A stretch of DNA of 58,270 nucleotides, taken from an uncultured Candidatus Saccharibacteria bacterium. Its GTDB lineage: Bacteria; Patescibacteriota; Minisyncoccia; UBA9983. The stretch covers positions 1-58,270 of the forward strand of contig CAYTKF010000003.1 of assembly GCA_964438405.1 (NCBI GenBank), written 5' to 3'. The position numbers were made by a program, and so were the translations under genes. This document shows, in pieces, positions 2,462-58,270 of this stretch (position 1 is its first letter; every line of letters begins with the position of its first letter). Below the pieces are notes generated by a model. It did no database searches and was not told the origin of the DNA. It worked only from the letters and a program-made list of their open reading frames with translations.

Positions 2462-3180
2462 TCTTTATGTTTAAGAACATACTTTCAATAATATTACTTG
2501 GAACAGCAGCTGCAGTTTTTTTTGTTTTTTCCAAACCCCTTTATCAAGAAATCCAGGATTTACGAGTGCATAGAGAGTCTTTAAACGATACTCTTTCCCA
2601 ATCAAAAAAAATTCAGGCAAAGAGAGATGAAATTTTGTCGCAATACAACAATATTTCCAATGATAATCTGGATCGTCTTAAAAAAATGCTTCCGAACAGT
2701 CCGGATTCAATAAAATTTATTTTGGGGCTTGATAATATTTCAAGAAAAAATGGCATTATCCTAAAAGATATAAATGTTAATAGTAGCGCAGTGCCATCTT
2801 CAGGTGGGCAGAAGATAGACGTTATTTCCATGCCGATTTCCATGAAGGTGAGCGCTTCATACGTTTCTTTTTATAATTTTCTAAAAGATATTGAAAACAA
2901 TTTACGTCTGACAGAAATAAAAGAAATTAATTTTACGGCCGGAGATGCTGATTTTTACGAATTTAATATTAGTGGATTAATTCGTTATAAAGAAAATTAT
3001 TCTATCGCTCCTACGGAACAAATATCTCAGACCCAAGAAATTATAATGATTCTTAATACTCTCAACAATATAAATCTTGATGTTACATTTTTTGATAACC
3101 CGGTTTTTAAGAATCTGAACGATTTTTCGGTTGAGTTGCCAATAATGGAAAAAGGGAAAATAAATCCATTTTCTCAATAA
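2458..3180 (+). CDS. pilO: PilO-like pilus alignment protein
   Basis: N-terminal TM, coiled coil, KMLP motif and SYxxFxxFLxxIExxxRL motif typical of PilO; start may be 2467. Confidence 0.75.
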   Translation: MIFMFKNILSIILLGTAAAVFFVFSKPLYQEIQDLRVHRESLNDTLSQSKKIQAKRDEILSQYNNISNDNLDRLKKMLPNSPDSIKFILGLDNISRKNGIILKDINVNSSAVPSSGGQKIDVISMPISMKVSASYVSFYNFLKDIENNLRLTEIKEINFTAGDADFYEFNISGLIRYKENYSIAPTEQISQTQEIIMILNTLNNINLDVTFFDNPVFKNLNDFSVELPIMEKGKINPFSQ

Positions 3181-3181
3181 C

Positions 3182-4888
3182 ATGCAGTTTTCTGACGTAT
3201 TAATCAAAAAGAAAATTATAGACGCGCGAAAACTCGCGAAACTCACCACGAGGTCAAAGGAGGAAAATTTGTCTCTGGAAAAACTTCTTTTGGATGAAGG
3301 TATTTCAGAAAAAGAAATTTTGGATGCCAAGGGAGAGGCCGGAGAAATTTTAACGCGGACCATTGTTAAAGATCAGATCTCCTTTGAAGTTTTAAAACAA
3401 ATTCCAGAAGAAGCCGCCAGGCATTATAAATTTGTTCCCCTTGAAATTAAAGACGGGGTTTTGGAAGTGGGAATGGTGAATCCAGAAAATGTAGAGGCAA
3501 GAGAGGCTTTACAATTTATTGTCTCAAAATTAAATATTCCATTCAGAATTTATTTGATTACCGATAAAGATTTGGAAATAGTGCTTGACTCTTATAAGGG
3601 CATTCGCGGAGAGGTGGGCAAGGTTTTGAATGAACTGGAATCAGCCCTGGCAGAAACCATACGCGAGGAATCTGTTGAAGATTTTTTAAAAACAGAGATT
3701 AAATTTATAGAAGATGCGCCAATTACCAAAATGGTTGCAGTGATATTAAAACACGCTATATCCGGCAATGCCTCTGATATTCATATCGAACCGACTTCCG
3801 AAAAAACAAAAGTGCGTTTTAGGGTTGATGGTATTTTATATACAAGCATAATGCTTCCTATCAGCGTTCATGATGCCATTGTCTCCAGAATAAAAATTTT
3901 AACCAACCTGAAAATTGATGAAAAACGTAAGCCTCAAGACGGCAGATTCGAAACAAAATTAGAAAATAGAAATATAGATTTTCGCGTTTCCACCTTCCCA
4001 ACTTTTTGGGGAGAAAAGGTTGTCATTCGTATTCTGGATAAAGTAAAAGGGGTTAGGAGTTTAAAAGAAATCGGTTTTTCCGAAGACCAGCTTGTGATTA
4101 CGAAAGAGGCGATAAAAAGACCTTACGGCATGATATTAATTACCGGTCCCACCGGTTCCGGCAAAACCACCACTCTTTATGCTATGCTCCAGGAACTGGA
4201 TAAAGAAAAATATAATGTTGTAAGTTTGGAGGATCCCATTGAATACAATATAGAGGGAGTAAGTCAGTCCCAAGTTCTTCCAGAAATAGGTTATGATTTT
4301 GCAAATGGTCTGCGTTCAATTTTACGTCAGGACCCGGACATGATAATGGTTGGTGAGATTCGCGACAAAGAAACTGCCGCTCTGGCCATACAGGCGGCCT
4401 TAACAGGACATCTTGTTTTTGCAACACTGCACACTAACAATGCTTCTGGCGTAATACCAAGGTTAGTGGATATGGGCGTTGACCCGTTTTTAATTGCCCC
4501 AACCATTCTTTTGGCCATAGGTCAAAGACTTGCCAGGACGCTTTGTCCTGATTCAAAAAAAGAAATACCCTTACTGGGAGCCGCAAGGGAAAAAATTGAA
4601 AAAGAGATAGCTGATATTCCGGAAAACATAAGAAAAAATATTAAAACTCCGGATAGAATATACCAGGGTGTGCCTTCGGCCACATGCCCTAAGGGGGCAA
4701 GGGGAAGAATAGGTATTTTTGAGATTTTGAGGAAATCTCCGGAACTGGAAAATATAATTTTAAATAAACCTATAGATGTCGAGATAATGAAAGAGGCCCG
4801 GCGCCAGGGCATGTATACAATGAGAGAGCAGGGCCTGATGAAATTATTTGAGGGGATAATTAGCTTTGAGGAATTTAATAAGTTATAA
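3182..4888 (+). CDS. pilB: Type IV pilus extension ATPase PilB (GspE/PulE family)
   Basis: ASDIHIEP, PQDGR, Walker A GPTGSGKTTT, EDPIEY, LRQDPD, VGEIRD, ALTGHLV. Confidence 0.96.
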   Translation: MQFSDVLIKKKIIDARKLAKLTTRSKEENLSLEKLLLDEGISEKEILDAKGEAGEILTRTIVKDQISFEVLKQIPEEAARHYKFVPLEIKDGVLEVGMVNPENVEAREALQFIVSKLNIPFRIYLITDKDLEIVLDSYKGIRGEVGKVLNELESALAETIREESVEDFLKTEIKFIEDAPITKMVAVILKHAISGNASDIHIEPTSEKTKVRFRVDGILYTSIMLPISVHDAIVSRIKILTNLKIDEKRKPQDGRFETKLENRNIDFRVSTFPTFWGEKVVIRILDKVKGVRSLKEIGFSEDQLVITKEAIKRPYGMILITGPTGSGKTTTLYAMLQELDKEKYNVVSLEDPIEYNIEGVSQSQVLPEIGYDFANGLRSILRQDPDMIMVGEIRDKETAALAIQAALTGHLVFATLHTNNASGVIPRLVDMGVDPFLIAPTILLAIGQRLARTLCPDSKKEIPLLGAAREKIEKEIADIPENIRKNIKTPDRIYQGVPSATCPKGARGRIGIFEILRKSPELENIILNKPIDVEIMKEARRQGMYTMREQGLMKLFEGIISFEEFNKL

Positions 4889-7563: not shown

Positions 7564-7597
7564 TTATTATTAATAATTTGTTAAAATTAAATAAATT

Positions 7598-8122
7598 ATG
7601 AATAAAAAAAGCAAAGGTTTCACTTTATTGGAGCTTTTGGTAGTCATTGCCGTTATTGGACTTTTTGCCGCAGTTATTCTTGCCTCGCTCAATAGCGCCA
7701 GAACAAAATCGCGGGATTCCAAAAGAGTTGTGGATTTAAAGAGTCTTCGAACAGCCCTGGAAATGTACTATGATACCTGCAGACAATATCCATCTACTCT
7801 GGCATTGGCCACTAATAATGGATGTCCTTCGGGAACTACGTTCGGGTCTTTTATCTCGGTTTTGCCAATAGACCCGCTCAGTGGCAGTTATAAATATACC
7901 GGGCTTGGCAACGCCTCTCCTCTTTCCTGCAACTCGTATCATTTGGGCGCTAATCTTGAAGATAAGACAAACCAATCTCTTAGCACTGATATTGATGCAT
8001 CTGCCGCCACCGCCTGCAGCGGCACAGATTTTAACGGCGTGGCCAATGAAAGCGCCTGCGTTAGTAATTGCGATTGTGCTGCGTCTGTTGCAACCAGATA
8101 TTGTTATGATATTAAGCCATAA
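7598..8122 (+). CDS. Type IV major pilin 1
   Basis: Class III signal KSKG|FTLLE, hydrophobic helix, ARTKSRDSKR motif, 8 Cys in the globular domain. Confidence 0.92.
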   Translation: MNKKSKGFTLLELLVVIAVIGLFAAVILASLNSARTKSRDSKRVVDLKSLRTALEMYYDTCRQYPSTLALATNNGCPSGTTFGSFISVLPIDPLSGSYKYTGLGNASPLSCNSYHLGANLEDKTNQSLSTDIDASAATACSGTDFNGVANESACVSNCDCAASVATRYCYDIKP

Positions 8123-29193: not shown

Positions 29194-29196
29194 ATT

Positions 29197-29229
29197 AAAA
29201 CAAAACCGCCGAAGAGGCGGTTTTGTTTT
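29197..29229. terminator. Bidirectional terminator
   Basis: AAAACAAAACCGCC-GAAGA-GGCGGTTTTGTTTT between convergent genes. Confidence 0.85.
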
Positions 29230-29233
29230 GGGA

Positions 29234-39902: not shown

Positions 39903-40517
39903 ATGACTGCTTTACAAAAAATTAAAAAACTGGAAAAAGAGATTAAAAAACTGCGCGAGCTGGCATATAAAGACGAGCTGACCAAGCTTTACAATAGGCA
40001 TGGCTTTAAAGAAGAGTCAGAAAAGATTATTTCTCAGGTGTCGGCCTTTTTAAAACACGGCGATAAAAGAAAATCTTTGATAATAAAAGATTTTAGTTTG
40101 ATAATTTTTGACATAGACAATTTTAAAAAACTTAACGATACTTACGGCCATCAGGCGGGCGACGAGGCCTTAAAATTTTTTAGCGGATTAATATTGGACC
40201 GTGTAAGAGGCATTGATGCTGTGGCCCGTTGGGGCGGGGAAGAAATTGTAGTGGGTCTGGCCGGAGCCAACGAAGATGACGCATATAAAATCGCCGATGA
40301 TATCCGCGGAAAGCTGGAAAGAAACAGTTTTGTTTATAAAAATAAAAAAATAAATTTTACAGTTAGCGGTGGCGTGACAAGTTTAAATAAGACAAAAGAT
40401 TTTGAGAATATGTTTCGTTGCGCTGACAAAGCCTTGTATAAAGCCAAAAAAACAGGTAAAAATAAGATAGTAAAAGGAAGCGTCGCATTGCGCCTCAACG
40501 GCGCACTTGTGCGGTAA
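39903..40517 (+). CDS. GGDEF diguanylate cyclase
   Basis: DELTKLYNR, FDIDNFKKLNDTYGH, RxxD I-site, RWGGEE, ADKALYKAK. Confidence 0.92.
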   Translation: MTALQKIKKLEKEIKKLRELAYKDELTKLYNRHGFKEESEKIISQVSAFLKHGDKRKSLIIKDFSLIIFDIDNFKKLNDTYGHQAGDEALKFFSGLILDRVRGIDAVARWGGEEIVVGLAGANEDDAYKIADDIRGKLERNSFVYKNKKINFTVSGGVTSLNKTKDFENMFRCADKALYKAKKTGKNKIVKGSVALRLNGALVR

Positions 40518-40818
40518 TGAGGTGCATCCGCCGATGAGGCGGAAGTAATAATATAATTAATGTTTTACTTTTATGTGTTAAAATTTAAAAAGAATGGTAA
40601 ATTATATTATGGTTTTACAAATAATTTGAAACGTAGAATTAGAGACCATAATAGTGGTCAGTCTGATTTTTCTTCAAGAAACGGTAAATTTGATTTGATA
40701 TTTTATGAAGCTTATATCAATAAAAATGATGCAATGGCCGCAGAAAAATATTTTAAAAGTGGACACGGGAGAGAAGTATTAAGAGGAAAATTGAAAAATT
40801 ATTTTGGAAGCGTCGCAT
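40476..40818 (+). mobile_element. GIY-YIG insertion unit that duplicated the 5' end of tRNA-Ser
   Basis: GGAAGCGTCGCAT at 40476-88 and 40806-18 (330 bp apart); REP hairpins at 40489-505 and 40526-44; nuclease gene in between. Confidence 0.75.
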
Positions 40819-40820
40819 AG
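40560..40820 (+). CDS. GIY-YIG nuclease family protein
   Basis: FYFYVL...LYYGFT..LKRRIRDHN...YEAY...AEKYFK; stop codon lies in the tRNA D-arm. Confidence 0.9.
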   Translation: MFYFYVLKFKKNGKLYYGFTNNLKRRIRDHNSGQSDFSSRNGKFDLIFYEAYINKNDAMAAEKYFKSGHGREVLRGKLKNYFGSVA

Positions 40821-40890
40821 TGGCCTAGTGCGCCCGCTTGGAAAGCGGGTATGCCGAAAGGCATCGTGAGTTCGAATCTCACCGCTTCCG
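40806..40890 (+). tRNA. tRNA-Ser(GGA)
   Basis: Acceptor GGAAGCG/CGCTTCC, CCCGC-TTGGAAA-GCGGG, long variable arm, TTCGAAT T-loop. Confidence 0.95.
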
Positions 40891-40894
40891 ATTG

Positions 40895-55097: not shown

Positions 55098-55176
55098 AAA
55101 ATACTGATATTCAAAAAAGTCCGGCTCTCAAAGCCGGGCTTTTGATTTTTAATGTAGATTTTATATAGTATATAAC

Positions 55177-55800
55177 ATGGTGCACAAACGCAAAACTAAG
55201 AAGTCAGTTATTGTGGCTATTGTTGGTCTTGTCGGTTCCGGTAAAAGTTCTGTGACTAAAGAACTTGCTAGGCATATCGGTGCCACCGTTATTAAAGGCG
55301 ATGATATTCGTATCGAGCTTCGCAAGCAGGGTGAACGGTATGAACAAGCTCGAGTTATTGCTGAAAATGTTGCGCTTGAAGTTGTAAAGCGAGGCAGTAA
55401 CGTTATTCTTGATTCTGATTTTATTGAAGCGAATAAACGAGCAAGTGTTCGTGAGAAAGCGCGGAAAGCTGGTGTGCGTCTCGTCTTCGTTCGTACACAC
55501 TGCGATCTCGATGTGGCAGTTGGCCGTGTTCTAACTGCAACCTATCATAATCGTGTGGACGACTTTTTCGGAGGTGCGTCTTCGAAATGGACAGGAGGCG
55601 AGCAGACAAAAGGTGCGGTAGTAAAAATCCGCGAGATGTGGCGTCGCACGCCTCATCACTATCGCTGGGTCAATCAAGGCGGCGGTAAGTGGATTCTCAA
55701 AAAATTTCCGTTTCCCCTTTTTGCCGAAATTGACACCACAACTGATTCCTGGAAAAAGGAAGTGAAGAAATGCGCTAAAAAACTTTTAGCGCAAAAATAA
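55177..55800 (+). CDS. P-loop kinase (AAA_33-like)
   Basis: Walker A GLVGSGKS, GDDIRIEL, VILDSDF. Confidence 0.75.
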   Translation: MVHKRKTKKSVIVAIVGLVGSGKSSVTKELARHIGATVIKGDDIRIELRKQGERYEQARVIAENVALEVVKRGSNVILDSDFIEANKRASVREKARKAGVRLVFVRTHCDLDVAVGRVLTATYHNRVDDFFGGASSKWTGGEQTKGAVVKIREMWRRTPHHYRWVNQGGGKWILKKFPFPLFAEIDTTTDSWKKEVKKCAKKLLAQK

Positions 55801-55868
55801 AATTGTTATTTTTTGTAATTTGGTCCGTGCTTGAAAAAGCCGGACTTTTTGTTTTTTATCCACAGCGC

Positions 55869-55898
55869 TTGCCTTTTTGTCTTTGGAAGTGTTATACT
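55869..55898 (+). promoter_or_regulatory. Sigma70 promoter of a small RNA
   Basis: TTGCCT-18nt-TATACT with extended TG; no plus-strand ORF follows before the terminator. Confidence 0.65.
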
Positions 55899-55903
55899 TA
55901 TAA

Positions 55904-55993
55904 AGTGCTTGTGGGGCGTCAGCCCTATTCGGCTAATACATAAGCTGAAGGCAGGCACTACAAAGATACCCCTTGCGGGGTGTTTTTGTTTTT
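55904..55993 (+). ncRNA. Putative structured small RNA (three-way junction plus terminator)
   Basis: P1 AGTGCTTGT/GCAGGCACT, P2 GGGC-GTCA-GCCC, P3 TTCGGCT/AGCTGAA, then ATACCCC-TTGC-GGGGTGT and a T-tract. Confidence 0.7.
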
Positions 55994-56471
55994 AGTCTTC
56001 TTCGGGATTACCATTCATTGTTGTAAAAAATCTTATATCTCTATATTTATTTGTAGTCCAGTCGGGAATAATGCTTAAAAAATGCATTGTCCCGTTGTCT
56101 CCTATTTTTCTGATTATTACTTTAATTTTTCTGCCGTCAATTATTGCGATTATACCCCAATATTTGACTGGCTTAGTTTTTCTAATTTTTTTCTTGAAAC
56201 TTTTAACTTCAAATTCTTTTATTGTTTCTTCAAATTCTTGATAAGTTGTTGATGTTTTTATAAGTTTGACTGCCAATGGAAGCAATTTAAATCTCAATAT
56301 TTGAGAAGATTTTTCTCTTTCCGAATGCGCCCGCTTAAAAATAATATGATTAAATGATTCAGAGGGAAAATATATATCTTGATTAAAAACAGGAGAAAAA
56401 ACCTTACCAATTCCATTATAAAAATTTTGTGCATTCTCTTTTAGTTTTTCGTAGTTAGAAATATCTTCCAT
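55992..56471 (-). CDS. BECR-fold (PBECR/RelE-like) putative ribonuclease
   Basis: IYFPSESFNHIIFK...RFKLL...YWGIIAII..KIKVIIRK...HFLSIIP pattern. Fold assignment is an inference. Confidence 0.6.
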   Translation of the reverse strand: MEDISNYEKLKENAQNFYNGIGKVFSPVFNQDIYFPSESFNHIIFKRAHSEREKSSQILRFKLLPLAVKLIKTSTTYQEFEETIKEFEVKSFKKKIRKTKPVKYWGIIAIIDGRKIKVIIRKIGDNGTMHFLSIIPDWTTNKYRDIRFFTTMNGNPEED

Positions 56472-56512
56472 AATGAAACTTTATCATTTTTGGTTTAATT
56501 TATCCACAGCGC

Positions 56513-56540
56513 TTGACAGGAAAAATTAGGAGAGTAGAAT
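56513..56540 (+). promoter_or_regulatory. Sigma70 promoter upstream of the SAM riboswitch
   Basis: TTGACA-16nt-TAGAAT, preceded by TTATCCACA (56500-08). Confidence 0.7.
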
Positions 56541-56566
56541 GTAATTAGACAATTAAATAAGTGGTT

Positions 56567-56667
56567 TTATCAAGAGAGGCACGAGGGTTCTGGCCCGATG
56601 ACTGCCCGACAACCTGCCAATAAGTCCTTTGGCAAGGTGCCAAATCCAGCCCGCAAGGGAAAGATAA
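56567..56667 (+). ncRNA. SAM-I (S-box) riboswitch
   Basis: TTATCAAGAGAGG..GAGGG..TGGCCCGATGA..CCCG.CAACC...GGTGCCAAATCC...AAAGATAA matches the SAM-I consensus, with P1 TTATC/GATAA. Confidence 0.9.
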
Positions 56668-56757
56668 TTTGGCGATTTTTGTTTGCCAAGAATTAAAGAA
56701 CTCTTTCCCAGCGGAAGAGCTCTTTTACAATTGAAGAAAGTAGAAAGGAGAAAAGAA

Positions 56758-57336
56758 ATGAGCGAAAACTGGAAAGACATTCTTGAAGCAGTTCAAGGTT
56801 TTAAAGACAACAGAAAGGACCATTTTCCTCAGGCGGATAAAATGGTTGAATTTTTTAACCAAGTGTCTACGGAGAATTTAGTGGTTCATCTTGAGGAAAT
56901 TTTCCAACTTTTCAAGCAGTGGCCGTATAATCAACATGATGACGAGGCTCAGAACGCAATACAAATTGCCATGAGCAGATTGATTTGTCATTTGACACCG
57001 GACCGTCAGTTTGTATTAGTTAAGTTGGGGTTAAGGCATTTGGCTGAGGAGTTGGATTTTTCAGAATCCGACCTGAACGAAAGCGGAGTGCCGATTCCCA
57101 AATGGCTTCACCTGTGGAATATTTTTGCCACTTACAAATCATTGTTTAAGAATTATGTCCAAGTGAGACAATTGCGCTCTTTAGCAAAAAAACTCTGCGC
57201 AACGCACCCGTTTTTTAAAAACTACTATTTTATCTTTGACCAGTTGATTCTTGTTCCAGAAAGAATGAGGATGTCTCGACTGGAAAGAATCAAGTGGTTT
57301 CGTGAAATTAAGAAACCCAAATGGCTCATTTCTTGA
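56758..57336 (+). CDS. Hypothetical helical protein under the SAM riboswitch
   Basis: AAGGAG SD before ATG 56758; no family recognised. Confidence 0.7.
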   Translation: MSENWKDILEAVQGFKDNRKDHFPQADKMVEFFNQVSTENLVVHLEEIFQLFKQWPYNQHDDEAQNAIQIAMSRLICHLTPDRQFVLVKLGLRHLAEELDFSESDLNESGVPIPKWLHLWNIFATYKSLFKNYVQVRQLRSLAKKLCATHPFFKNYYFIFDQLILVPERMRMSRLERIKWFREIKKPKWLIS

Positions 57337-57354
57337 TATATTTTGTTCTTTTGT

Positions 57355-57380
57355 GGCACTCGAAAGGGTGCCTTTTTATT
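57355..57380 (+). terminator. Intrinsic terminator
   Basis: GGCACTC-GAAA-GGGTGCC followed by TTTTT. Confidence 0.82.
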
Positions 57381-57412
57381 TTTATCCACAGAACGATTTA
57401 TTGCCAAGCGGC

Positions 57413-57440
57413 TTGACAGGAATTTTTATAAGAATATAAT
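57413..57440 (+). promoter_or_regulatory. Promoter of the unlinked 23S rRNA gene
   Basis: TTGACA-16nt-TATAAT; DnaA box at 57382-90; boxA-like GAACTTTAACAA at 57565-76. Confidence 0.72.
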
Positions 57441-57764
57441 TGGAATTACAGTATGAGTAACATTATAAAAACCCAATATTTGAAGCGGAAAATCTAGCTG
57501 TCTTTTTTTGCGATGTGTCAGAATGTCCGCTTCTAAAAGGCGGATTTTTTAATCAGAATGAATAGAACTTTAACAATTTAGCAGGTAAAAAAGTAGAATA
57601 AGTATATAAATTTCCTAATAGGAAATTAAGGGCGTATGGTGGATGCCTAGACATCAAAGGGCGATGAAGGACGTGGCGTGGCTGCGATAATCTTCGGGGA
57701 GCTGCCAAGCGAGCTTTGATCCGGAGGTTTCCGAATGGGGCAACCCATCGTGATTTAATCACGA

Positions 57765-57848
57765 TACGCAGATTTGCGCAGATTTCTACGCAGATTCTCG
57801 CGGATTTTATCCGCGTTTATCCGCGCAGGCATCTGCGTTTATCTGCGA
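57765..57848 (+). repeat. Repeat-built intervening sequence in 23S (helix 10 region)
   Basis: Four CGCRGAT units followed by four inverted ATCYGCG units. Confidence 0.8.
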
Positions 57849-58102
57849 GTGAACCCGCTGAAGTGAAACATCTCAGTAAGCGGTGGAAAAGAGAATAAAA
57901 ATTTATTCCCCCAGTAGCGGCGAGTGAAAAGGGAAGAGCCCAAACCCCGATACTTTAGTATCGCGGGGGTTGTAAGATAATAACATCTATTTAATTAGGA
58001 GAGTCTATAAAATAAAACTTCGTTAGTTGAATCTTGCTGGAAAGCAGAGCCAGAGAGGGTAATAGCCCTGTAAGCGAAAACGGTTTTATGCTCTCAGTTA
58101 TT

Positions 58103-58139
58103 TGCGCCTCAACGGCGCATCTGCCGACGAGGCAGAATT
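58103..58139 (+). repeat. REP-derived insertion in 23S rRNA
   Basis: TGCGCCTCAACGGCGCA plus TCTGCCGACGAGGCAGA; matches the element at 40489-40544; flanked by ATT on both sides. Confidence 0.8.
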
Positions 58140-58215
58140 CTTGAGTACTTCGAAACATGATTGGTTCGGAGGAATCCGGGAGAACTAACTCCCAAGGCTA
58201 AATACCTTTGATGAT

Positions 58216-58252
<37 letters not shown>

Positions 58253-58270
58253 CAGCCCGGTGAGGGCGAT

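Follow-up and report, generated by a model that had tools for sequence, protein, structure and literature searches.

A 34-nt double hairpin interrupts the 23S rRNA gene of this genome and has a sibling in a GIY-YIG nuclease/tRNA-Ser cassette on the same stretch of DNA, and it seems likely, though by no means certain, that it was inserted into the rRNA gene and has been kept there as a micro-expansion. Comparison with relatives, whose loci are given L-numbers and were set against the window (the whole 58,270-nt stretch of DNA that was analysed), shows that the module entered the 3′ strand of the 23S trunk helix as a DNA-level insertion, without duplication of the target, and indicates that it behaves as a discrete insertion in both of its contexts, each with a known uninterrupted counterpart. 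The 23S insertion is a recent rRNA gain, namely a small expansion for which a related copy can be identified.

The double-hairpin module and its place in the 23S rRNA gene

The two copies share an 18-mer, TTGCGCCTCAACGGCGCA, that is exact at 40488-40505 and 58102-58119, as the sequence-only reading had it; at up to three mismatches, 0.01 matches are expected in the window, and three or more matches were obtained in none of 100 shuffles. The third match of the window at this threshold falls on the reverse strand of the second hairpin (HP2), which therefore resembles the reverse complement of the first (HP1); the two agree at 14-15 of 17-18 positions, making the unit an inverted doublet of short palindromes. 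The second hairpin, ATCCGCCGATGAGGCGGAA at 40526-40544 and ATCTGCCGACGAGGCAGAA at 58119-58137, differs between the copies at three positions, two of which (C40529 to T58122 and G40541 to A58134) are the two sides of one stem pair. The C-G to T-A covariation proposed earlier is borne out by these changes, and the remaining difference, T40535 to C58128, is a loop base.

The module proper comprises 34 nt (58103-58136, plus strand; covariance-model match of 60.3 bits), 31 of them the same in both copies, and consists of two abutting GC-rich hairpins, each with a 6-bp stem and a 5-nt loop. In the 23S copy these read TGCGCC-TCAAC-GGCGCA (HP1, 58103-58119) and TCTGCC-GACGA-GGCAGA (HP2, 58120-58136), and are predicted to fold in the 23S context as two independent hairpins. 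In the cassette copy, also on the plus strand, HP1 (40489-40505) is the same as in the 23S copy and HP2 (40527-40543) reads TCCGCC-GATGA-GGCGGA, a sequence identical in L122, L123 and L124. The cassette hairpins of the window are separated by 21 extra nucleotides (40506-40526, plus strand; CTTGTGCGGTAATGAGGTGCA) that the 23S copy does not have and that belong to the cassette of this genome only, being missing from the modules of L122, L123, L124, L132 and L139. They look like a partial third hairpin unit, in that AATGAGGTGCA within them resembles the 3′ half of HP2, with pairing to HP1 being possible.

The two copies are homologous and not products of chance, and their stems are under structural selection. 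Among the seven distinct copies, 98.8% of pair cells hold standard pairs, the only unpaired cell belonging to the decayed copy of L132, and three pairs (four cells) have changed on both sides. The covariation score of the module was reached by none of 500 shuffles, and controls slid along the sequence gave 33-48% pairing. The earlier suggestion of selection for structure is upheld by these compensated changes, which point to a constraint acting on the RNA. A covariance model of the module, run over 173 kb of the window and its relatives, recovered the nuclease/tRNA-Ser cassettes and two 23S copies; it matches the opposite strand as well, at 35-48 bits compared to 52-62 bits on the plus strand, the transcribed strand always scoring better. 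No dispersed copies were found in these 173 kb, and the 58 kb of the window hold two. That the element colonizes stable-RNA genes, as had been proposed, overstates its copy number, which is so low that it lends little weight to active mobility, and the non-autonomous mobility suggested with it is conjectural.

Wider scans returned mostly chance matches. A 17-mer, TGCGCCTCAACGGCGCA, gave at least 119 matches in genome contigs, nearly all fortuitous and in GC-rich genomes; the one CPR match among those listed, in L012 (Saccharibacteria), comes from an intergenic hairpin that is unrelated to the module and matches no Rfam family. Viral contigs gave a single match, a chance one in a GC-rich phage gene, and a protein-based scan of them yielded no relatives. 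The covariance model also picked up one divergent doublet of 30 nt, TCCGCC-AAA-GGCGGA TCCGCC-TCG-GGCGGA, in L131 only (4713-4744). Inserted at the 3′ end of rplJ without breaking its frame, this doublet contributes SAKGGSASGG to the product; the window, L126, L129, L150 and L152 are without it, and its stem and abutting architecture are those of the module. Together with a solo HP1 in the cassette of L139, it indicates that hairpin units have gone into other places as well. The window also holds a bidirectional terminator-like hairpin, AAAACAAAACCGCC-GAAGA-GGCGGTTTTGTTTT (29195-29232), with the same core as HP2 of L139, and a stem-loop core of the type CCGCC-GAAGA-GGCGG may be no more than a stable hairpin that these genomes favour.

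The 23S rRNA gene begins at 57616 and runs past the end of the window (57616-58270, plus strand; the 5′ 655 nt, matching RF02541 at 343 bits over model positions 1-539), which places the copy at 58102 inside it. The left flank of the module, GTTATT (58097-58102, plus strand), lies in the upper part of the domain-I trunk helix, on its 3′ strand, and pairs with AAUAAC of the 5′ strand, and the right flank, ATTCTTGAG (58137-58145, plus strand), comprises the 3′ strand of the lower trunk helix and the conserved GAGUA. The covariance alignment absorbs the extra bases in a 61-nt insert. Aligned by eye, CUUGAGUAC, UUCGAAACAUGAUUGGUUCGGA and GGAAUCC against the consensus CCcGAGUAcgg..ccgGAAUC place the extra material exactly at 58103-58136, between GUUAUU and AUUCUUGAG. 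The site corresponds approximately to Rfam model position 409/410, presumably near position ~360 of the E. coli gene, on the 3′ strand of the basal helix by which the multi-branched helix ahead of GAGUA is closed.

The 23S genes of relatives were obtained through the MscS-like gene that precedes 23S, and the identities given here are those of the MscS-like protein to that of the window. The module is absent from L151 (85%), which reads GCTCCTAGTTATTATTCTTGAGTACC, from L126 and L128 (82%), which have the same reading, and from L131 (76%), where the 23S site is also empty. The empty site of L151 and of L126/L128 is GTTATTATTCTTGAG; among the three closer relatives the uninterrupted site reads TTATTATTCTT in two and the equivalent GTTAATCTT in the third, the flanks GTTATT and ATTCTTGAG being contiguous. 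Removal of 34 nt from the window, which reads GTTATT-(34 nt)-ATTCTTGAG, restores GTTATTATTCTTGAG, and the predicted fold of an empty-site relative has both flanks in one continuous strand of the trunk helix. The comparison with close relatives that the sequence-only reading had called for thus reveals a discrete insertion, and not native sequence conserved in related taxa. Since relatives without the module already have ATTATT, the ATT on either side of it is no target duplication, a possibility raised from the sequence at first. In L129 (79%), an unrelated insert of ~65 nt (about 7575-7640) occupies the place of the module, which marks the site as a hotspot.

A search of metagenomes for the two-hairpin pattern, which demanded a TCAAC loop and hence missed cassettes with TCTAC, TCCAC or TCATC loops, returned a sole match, L121, in the 23S of a relative (62%). 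At the same place as in the window, L121 carries TGTGCC-TCAAC-GGCACA TTCGCC-GATGA-GGCGAA, in which every stem difference from the 23S copy of the window is compensated. Removal of 34 nt again gives TTATTATTCTT, with the junction 1 nt off (TTATTA^TTCTT, or alternatively a one-base shift of the insert). Two independent gains at this site are probable, as in this sampling they are more parsimonious than one gain followed by three precise losses and two indels, the phylogeny here being that of one neighbouring protein, with 520 ungapped 23S columns that are star-like.

Several other features of the locus also vary. At a second domain-I site each relative has a small hairpin of its own (CCCGCC-AAC-GGCGGG at 1657-1687 of L121, CCGGA-GCAA-TCCGG in L126 and GCCAGA-GTAA-TCTGGC in L129), and the window has an AT-rich 22-nt insert (57985-58006). 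A further insertion of ~100 nt lies more upstream in domain I of L129. Between the MscS-like gene and 23S, which adjoin in relatives, the window has ~2.5 kb extra (55100-57615) with an APS-kinase-like ORF, a 159-aa ORF on the minus strand and a SAM riboswitch (56564-56670) before a 217-aa ORF. No 16S gene occurs in the 57 kb upstream of 23S, so that the rRNA genes are unlinked.

The GIY-YIG/tRNA-Ser cassette

The sibling of the 23S copy lies in a compact cassette, all of whose parts are on the plus strand. A GGDEF gene (39903-40517) leads into it, its frame continuing through the relic and HP1 to end in the tail KGSVALRLNGALVR and a stop, the Pfam GGDEF domain itself ending at residue 188 of 204. 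The relic (40476-40488), GGAAGCGTCGCAT, directly precedes the copy at 40488 and is identical to 40805-40817, that is, to nt 1-13 of the functional tRNA-Ser(GGA) (40805-40891; ARAGORN and Rfam) that forms the 3′ partner of the cassette. The second copy does lie in a tRNA-Ser fragment, as had been noted from the sequence, and exactly between tRNA positions 13 and 14. Between the module and the tRNA is an 86-aa GIY-YIG nuclease gene (40560-40820; Pfam PF01541, E 7e-17), the last five codons and TAG stop of which fall within nt 1-16 of tRNA-Ser (40805-40820), the TAG being nt 14-16. The same stop-in-tRNA overlap is found in L123 (4247-4262) and L124 (4247-4262). RNase P, in cutting at the 5′ end of the tRNA, would strip the mRNA of its stop and of the five codons before it, thereby setting tRNA maturation against full-length translation, and the two look mutually exclusive.

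The nuclease is UPF0213-like and consists of the catalytic domain only, with no separate DNA-binding domain in its 86 residues; its closest solved structures are UPF0213 proteins (PDB 1zg2 and 1ywl), and Y3, Y5, Y16, G18, R26, H30 and E62 do not vary among 15 homologues. Its homologues form more than 130 clusters, with identities of 64-84%, and every one of these comes from Patescibacteria. The protein relatives of the window are all named Patescibacteria, Parcubacteria or Paceibacteria, which, with the ~39% GC and the unlinked 23S, marks the organism as a CPR bacterium. Cassette loci were found by way of this protein itself, and of the contigs of six homologues that were read, five contain the full cassette (L122, L123, L124/125, L132-138 and L139-148, from other Paceibacteria lineages), in the order tRNA-Ser nt 1-13, module, short AT-rich spacer, GIY-YIG ORF and tRNA-Ser. 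The consensus of the cassette module, TGCGCC-TCNAC-GGCGCA TCCGCC-GATGA-GGCGGA, is nearly invariant across lineages. Immediately after it stands AGCGGT (L123), AGTGGT (L124) or AGTGGCC(G)AG (L139), in each case the D-loop of the genome's own tRNA at nt 14-20. Because the D-loop resumes after the module, the relic amounts to nt 1-~22 of tRNA-Ser split exactly at 13/14, and its uninterrupted counterpart in the tRNA, GCAT^AGYGG, indicates that no bases were duplicated at the insertion. The upstream region as a whole was considered as a degenerate but complete tRNA-Ser and rejected, since only nt 1-13 and 14-~22 match.

The relic matches the tRNA of its own genome in L123 (3939-3951), L124 (3937-3949), L139 (2432-2444) and the window (40476-40488), and does so at every comparable variable position (4, 6, 16 and 19) despite the vertical look of the cassette. 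This suggests concerted evolution or repeated re-creation of the relic, and could be explained by gene conversion between the short repeats, by repeated re-insertion, or by a role at the RNA level. Individual cassettes depart from the common plan in other respects. In L139, HP1 carries a compensated change (TGAGCC/GGCTCA) and, as in L140-L148, a solo HP1-like hairpin of 21 nt, GGCGCGCCTCATCGGCGCACT (2749-2769 of L139), is inserted in frame past the end of the GIY-YIG ORF and before tRNA-Ser, which lengthens the protein from 86 to 93 aa. In L132 most of the relic is gone and HP2 has decayed into a Shine-Dalgarno-like AGGAGG; the cassette of L122 is without the relic; and that of L124 stands at tRNA-Ser(TGA), another isoacceptor and another locus. 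The sixth homologue read, L154 (66% identity, Wildermuthbacteria), has a nuclease-tRNA pair without module, relic or overlap. A second, truncated GIY-YIG ORF (58 aa) is found in L154 just downstream of tRNA-Ser (2936-3112).

The synteny from HtpX/GroEL upstream to GIY-YIG and tRNA-Ser is conserved, and inheritance of the cassette looks vertical. Every example has an intact and highly conserved nuclease gene, and a gene so maintained in kept synteny fits better with domestication than with selfish homing. Downstream of the cassette tRNA-Ser, the DNA differs among strains (L124 4320-7252, L136-L138 2732-4342 and L122 1340-1363), with serine recombinase and integrase genes and, in L122, a repeat of the tRNA 3′ end; this region has the look of a hotspot for integration, one unconnected with the cassette.

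Other roles for the leader of the cassette were considered and set aside. Pairing between the relic and HP1 as a conserved switch is possible in L123 only, and not in the window or L139. The module as a coding N-terminal extension of the nuclease (LRLHGASADEAE in some gene calls) fails on the frame, which is not conserved, L123 being out of frame. A guide-RNA-like unit of relic and hairpins is speculation with no supporting evidence. A promoter scan around the cassette gave nothing above background, and a relaxed Rfam search of the leader gave nothing credible (best match E 0.035, 19 bits against a cutoff of 43). A description of this combination of relic, double hairpin, GIY-YIG gene and tRNA-Ser was not found in literature searches, and the cassette is widespread in Paceibacteria and apparently undescribed.

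Origin of the 23S copy

The two 23S copies differ from the cassette consensus by 3 and 4 positions and from each other by 7. The HP1 loop TCAAC is common to the 23S and cassette copies of the window, the cassettes of other genomes having TCTAC, TCCAC or TCATC. Moreover, the cassette module is nearly invariant over deep divergences, and the 23S copies drift by compensation. The invariance of the cassette, the greater proximity of the 23S copies to its consensus and the shared TCAAC loop favour transfer from the cassette, or from a common source, to 23S as the most likely direction on the basis of sequence comparison.

A course of events can be proposed from these observations. The source of the 23S copy is most likely the cassette copy or a shared source within this lineage, and copying most likely proceeded through nuclease-initiated gene conversion or repair of a break, for which the adjacent GIY-YIG enzyme is the obvious candidate. 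Once in place, the module has most likely been retained in the mature rRNA as a small branch, with selection acting only on its local folding into hairpins that let the trunk helix still form. At both targets the insertion lies between T and A (GCAT^AG and TTATT^ATT), a weak consensus, and break-repair copying triggered by the nuclease would be the most economical mechanism. The nuclease is nevertheless put forward as a candidate agent only, as its lack of a DNA-binding domain, the intact state of its gene everywhere and the conserved synteny argue against a selfish homing gene. A bolder proposal, that the bare-domain GIY-YIG protein and the module constitute an unrecognized bacterial insertion system, which cuts at T^A in stable-RNA genes (the tRNA-Ser D-loop and 23S domain I) and copies in the 34 nt without target duplication, can be offered only tentatively and is itself rather unlikely.

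Of the competing explanations, the one that survives best, at a probability well short of even, is that the module is an old native 23S expansion of the clade that was precisely lost in several lineages, with the cassette copy derived from rRNA or mimicking it, for example as the binding site of a protein that also binds the ribosomal module. That two lineages with just 62% identity in the neighbouring protein share the module at one 23S site is consistent with such antiquity, the compensatory evolution of its stems is as expected for native rRNA helices, and the invariance of the cassette copy as expected for a protein-binding site. Yet the clean empty site of the three closer relatives has both ATT intact, a loss that simple slippage cannot explain, and an offset of 1 nt separates the two 23S copies. 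Furthermore, the module of the cassette extends far beyond the two lineages with a 23S module, and is there too an insertion, splitting the relic at 13/14.

Less likely still, the module may be a functional RNA element of the cassette transcript, such as a 5′ stabilizer or a processing or protein-binding signal for the GIY-YIG mRNA or pre-tRNA-Ser, its 23S copy being accidental and without a role. Its single orientation relative to transcription in every context, the near invariance of the cassette copies, and the competition between tRNA 5′ processing and translation that follows from a stop codon inside the tRNA all accord with a function in RNA, as do the HP2 loops, GAUGA, GAAGA and GACGA, which resemble GNRA-like pentaloops. 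Against it stand the Rfam search, with a best match far below the gathering score, the failure of the alternative pairing with the relic to be conserved, the nuclease-tRNA pair of L154 that does without any module, and the decay of HP2 in L132 into an AGGAGG.

Excision of the 23S copy by RNase III as an intervening sequence, leaving a fragmented 23S rRNA, was an option left by the sequence-only reading and is quite improbable, because the stems are of only 6 bp, with no long closing duplex for RNase III, and the site at ~409/410 lies apart from the classical helix-9 site (helices 25 and 45 being other sites of this kind in 23S). This same gene does bear a 67-nt insertion (13 nt in the model) in its helix-9 region further upstream (window about 57750-57830), built of repeated GCAGAT/ATCTGC motifs able to form a long imperfect stem. 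Short non-intron insertions are also frequent in CPR 23S genes, some at known sites of intervening sequences (PMC11270868), but the comparable double-hairpin elements of mitochondrial rRNA are reported to escape removal (PMC2800124). That the similarity is one of generic GC-rich hairpins, by chance or convergence, a reading to which the terminator-like hairpin at 29195-29232 and the many fortuitous matches of the 17-mer in GC-rich genomes might lend some colour, is effectively refuted already by the expectation of 0.01 matches in a window of ~39% GC, by two abutting hairpins with the same order and boundaries and 31 of 34 bases identical, and by the presence of the module in seven independent sequences.

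Related elements and significance

By architecture, the closest known things to the module are the mitochondrial double-hairpin elements (DHEs) of Allomyces, other chytrids and Schizosaccharomyces (Paquin et al. 2000), of which it may best be read as a bacterial counterpart. As later articles describe them, DHEs are GC-rich two-hairpin units of ~35 nt, located in intergenic DNA and in variable parts of rnl and rns, with no flanking duplication and nearly identical sequences across species, and are reported not to be removed from transcripts (PMC2800124, PMC10085805). The module likewise is a unit in the ~30-40-nt range with two adjacent GC-rich hairpins, and likewise occurs in a variable region of rRNA and in non-coding DNA without flanking duplication (TTATTATTCTT and GCAT^AGYGG). 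DHEs differ in being organellar and in having several dispersed copies, whereas the module resides in a CPR bacterium at very low copy number in the DNA surveyed, with one copy tied to the GIY-YIG/tRNA-Ser cassette.

Other systems offer looser analogies. The GC clusters of yeast mtDNA and the hairpin elements of sponge mtDNA are similarly small GC-rich palindromic insertions in AT-rich genomes, found inside rRNA genes and ORFs and retained in transcripts (PMC4478555, PMC2800124), but yeast GC clusters are thought to transpose with target duplication (PMC4478555, PMC2800124). Unlike the module, both are high-copy, and neither consists of doublets whose stems are fixed at 6 bp. REP/REPIN elements with RAYT are short imperfect palindromes arranged as inverted doublets beside the gene of a nuclease-type enzyme, in their case an HUH (Y1) transposase, and are extragenic with hundreds of copies. 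The module resembles them as an inverted palindrome doublet next to a nuclease-type gene, but this gene encodes a GIY-YIG protein (PF01541) and not HUH/RAYT, the copies are few, and one of them lies inside rRNA. With regard to the nuclease, SegB of phage T4, a free-standing homing endonuclease of the GIY-YIG type encoded in a cluster of tRNA genes, recognizes a conserved tRNA-gene motif and drives the inheritance of itself and its flanks (PMC2330249). Both genes are embedded among tRNA genes, yet SegB possesses a DNA-binding part and cleaves at a proven site, whereas the 86-aa protein is a bare UPF0213-type domain, a predicted nuclease, whose gene looks vertically inherited. Three established classes were rejected for the module: a MITE, as there is no target-site duplication in 23S, where ATTATT pre-existed, or at the tRNA relic; a classical intervening sequence excised by RNase III, for the reasons given above; and a group I or II intron or Rfam family, with no match at the gathering score.

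Insertions are known in 82% of CPR 23S genes (Tsurumaki et al. 2024; PMC11270868), among them short non-intron insertions without ORFs and, rarely, GIY-YIG ORFs. This survey counted only insertions of at least 100 bp, such that elements of the size of the module have gone uncatalogued, and linked none to a donor outside rRNA. The module belongs to the same group of organisms but is of 34 nt and has an identified sibling, and its 34-nt branch in 23S combines a sibling within this genome with clean empty sites in close relatives and compensated stem changes after insertion. The main new fact is its link to a conserved GIY-YIG/tRNA-Ser cassette, which the sequence-only reading had missed. The module is a structure-constrained discrete insertion and, in the DNA searched, not a proliferating element, and it makes the gain of an rRNA helix testable, as a ready-made hairpin unit placed in one strand of an existing helix. 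Should the proposed GIY-YIG/module insertion system prove real, it would account for some of the many small expansions in CPR rRNA and would provide a living example of the proposed step of rRNA growth in which a branch helix is inserted into a trunk helix.
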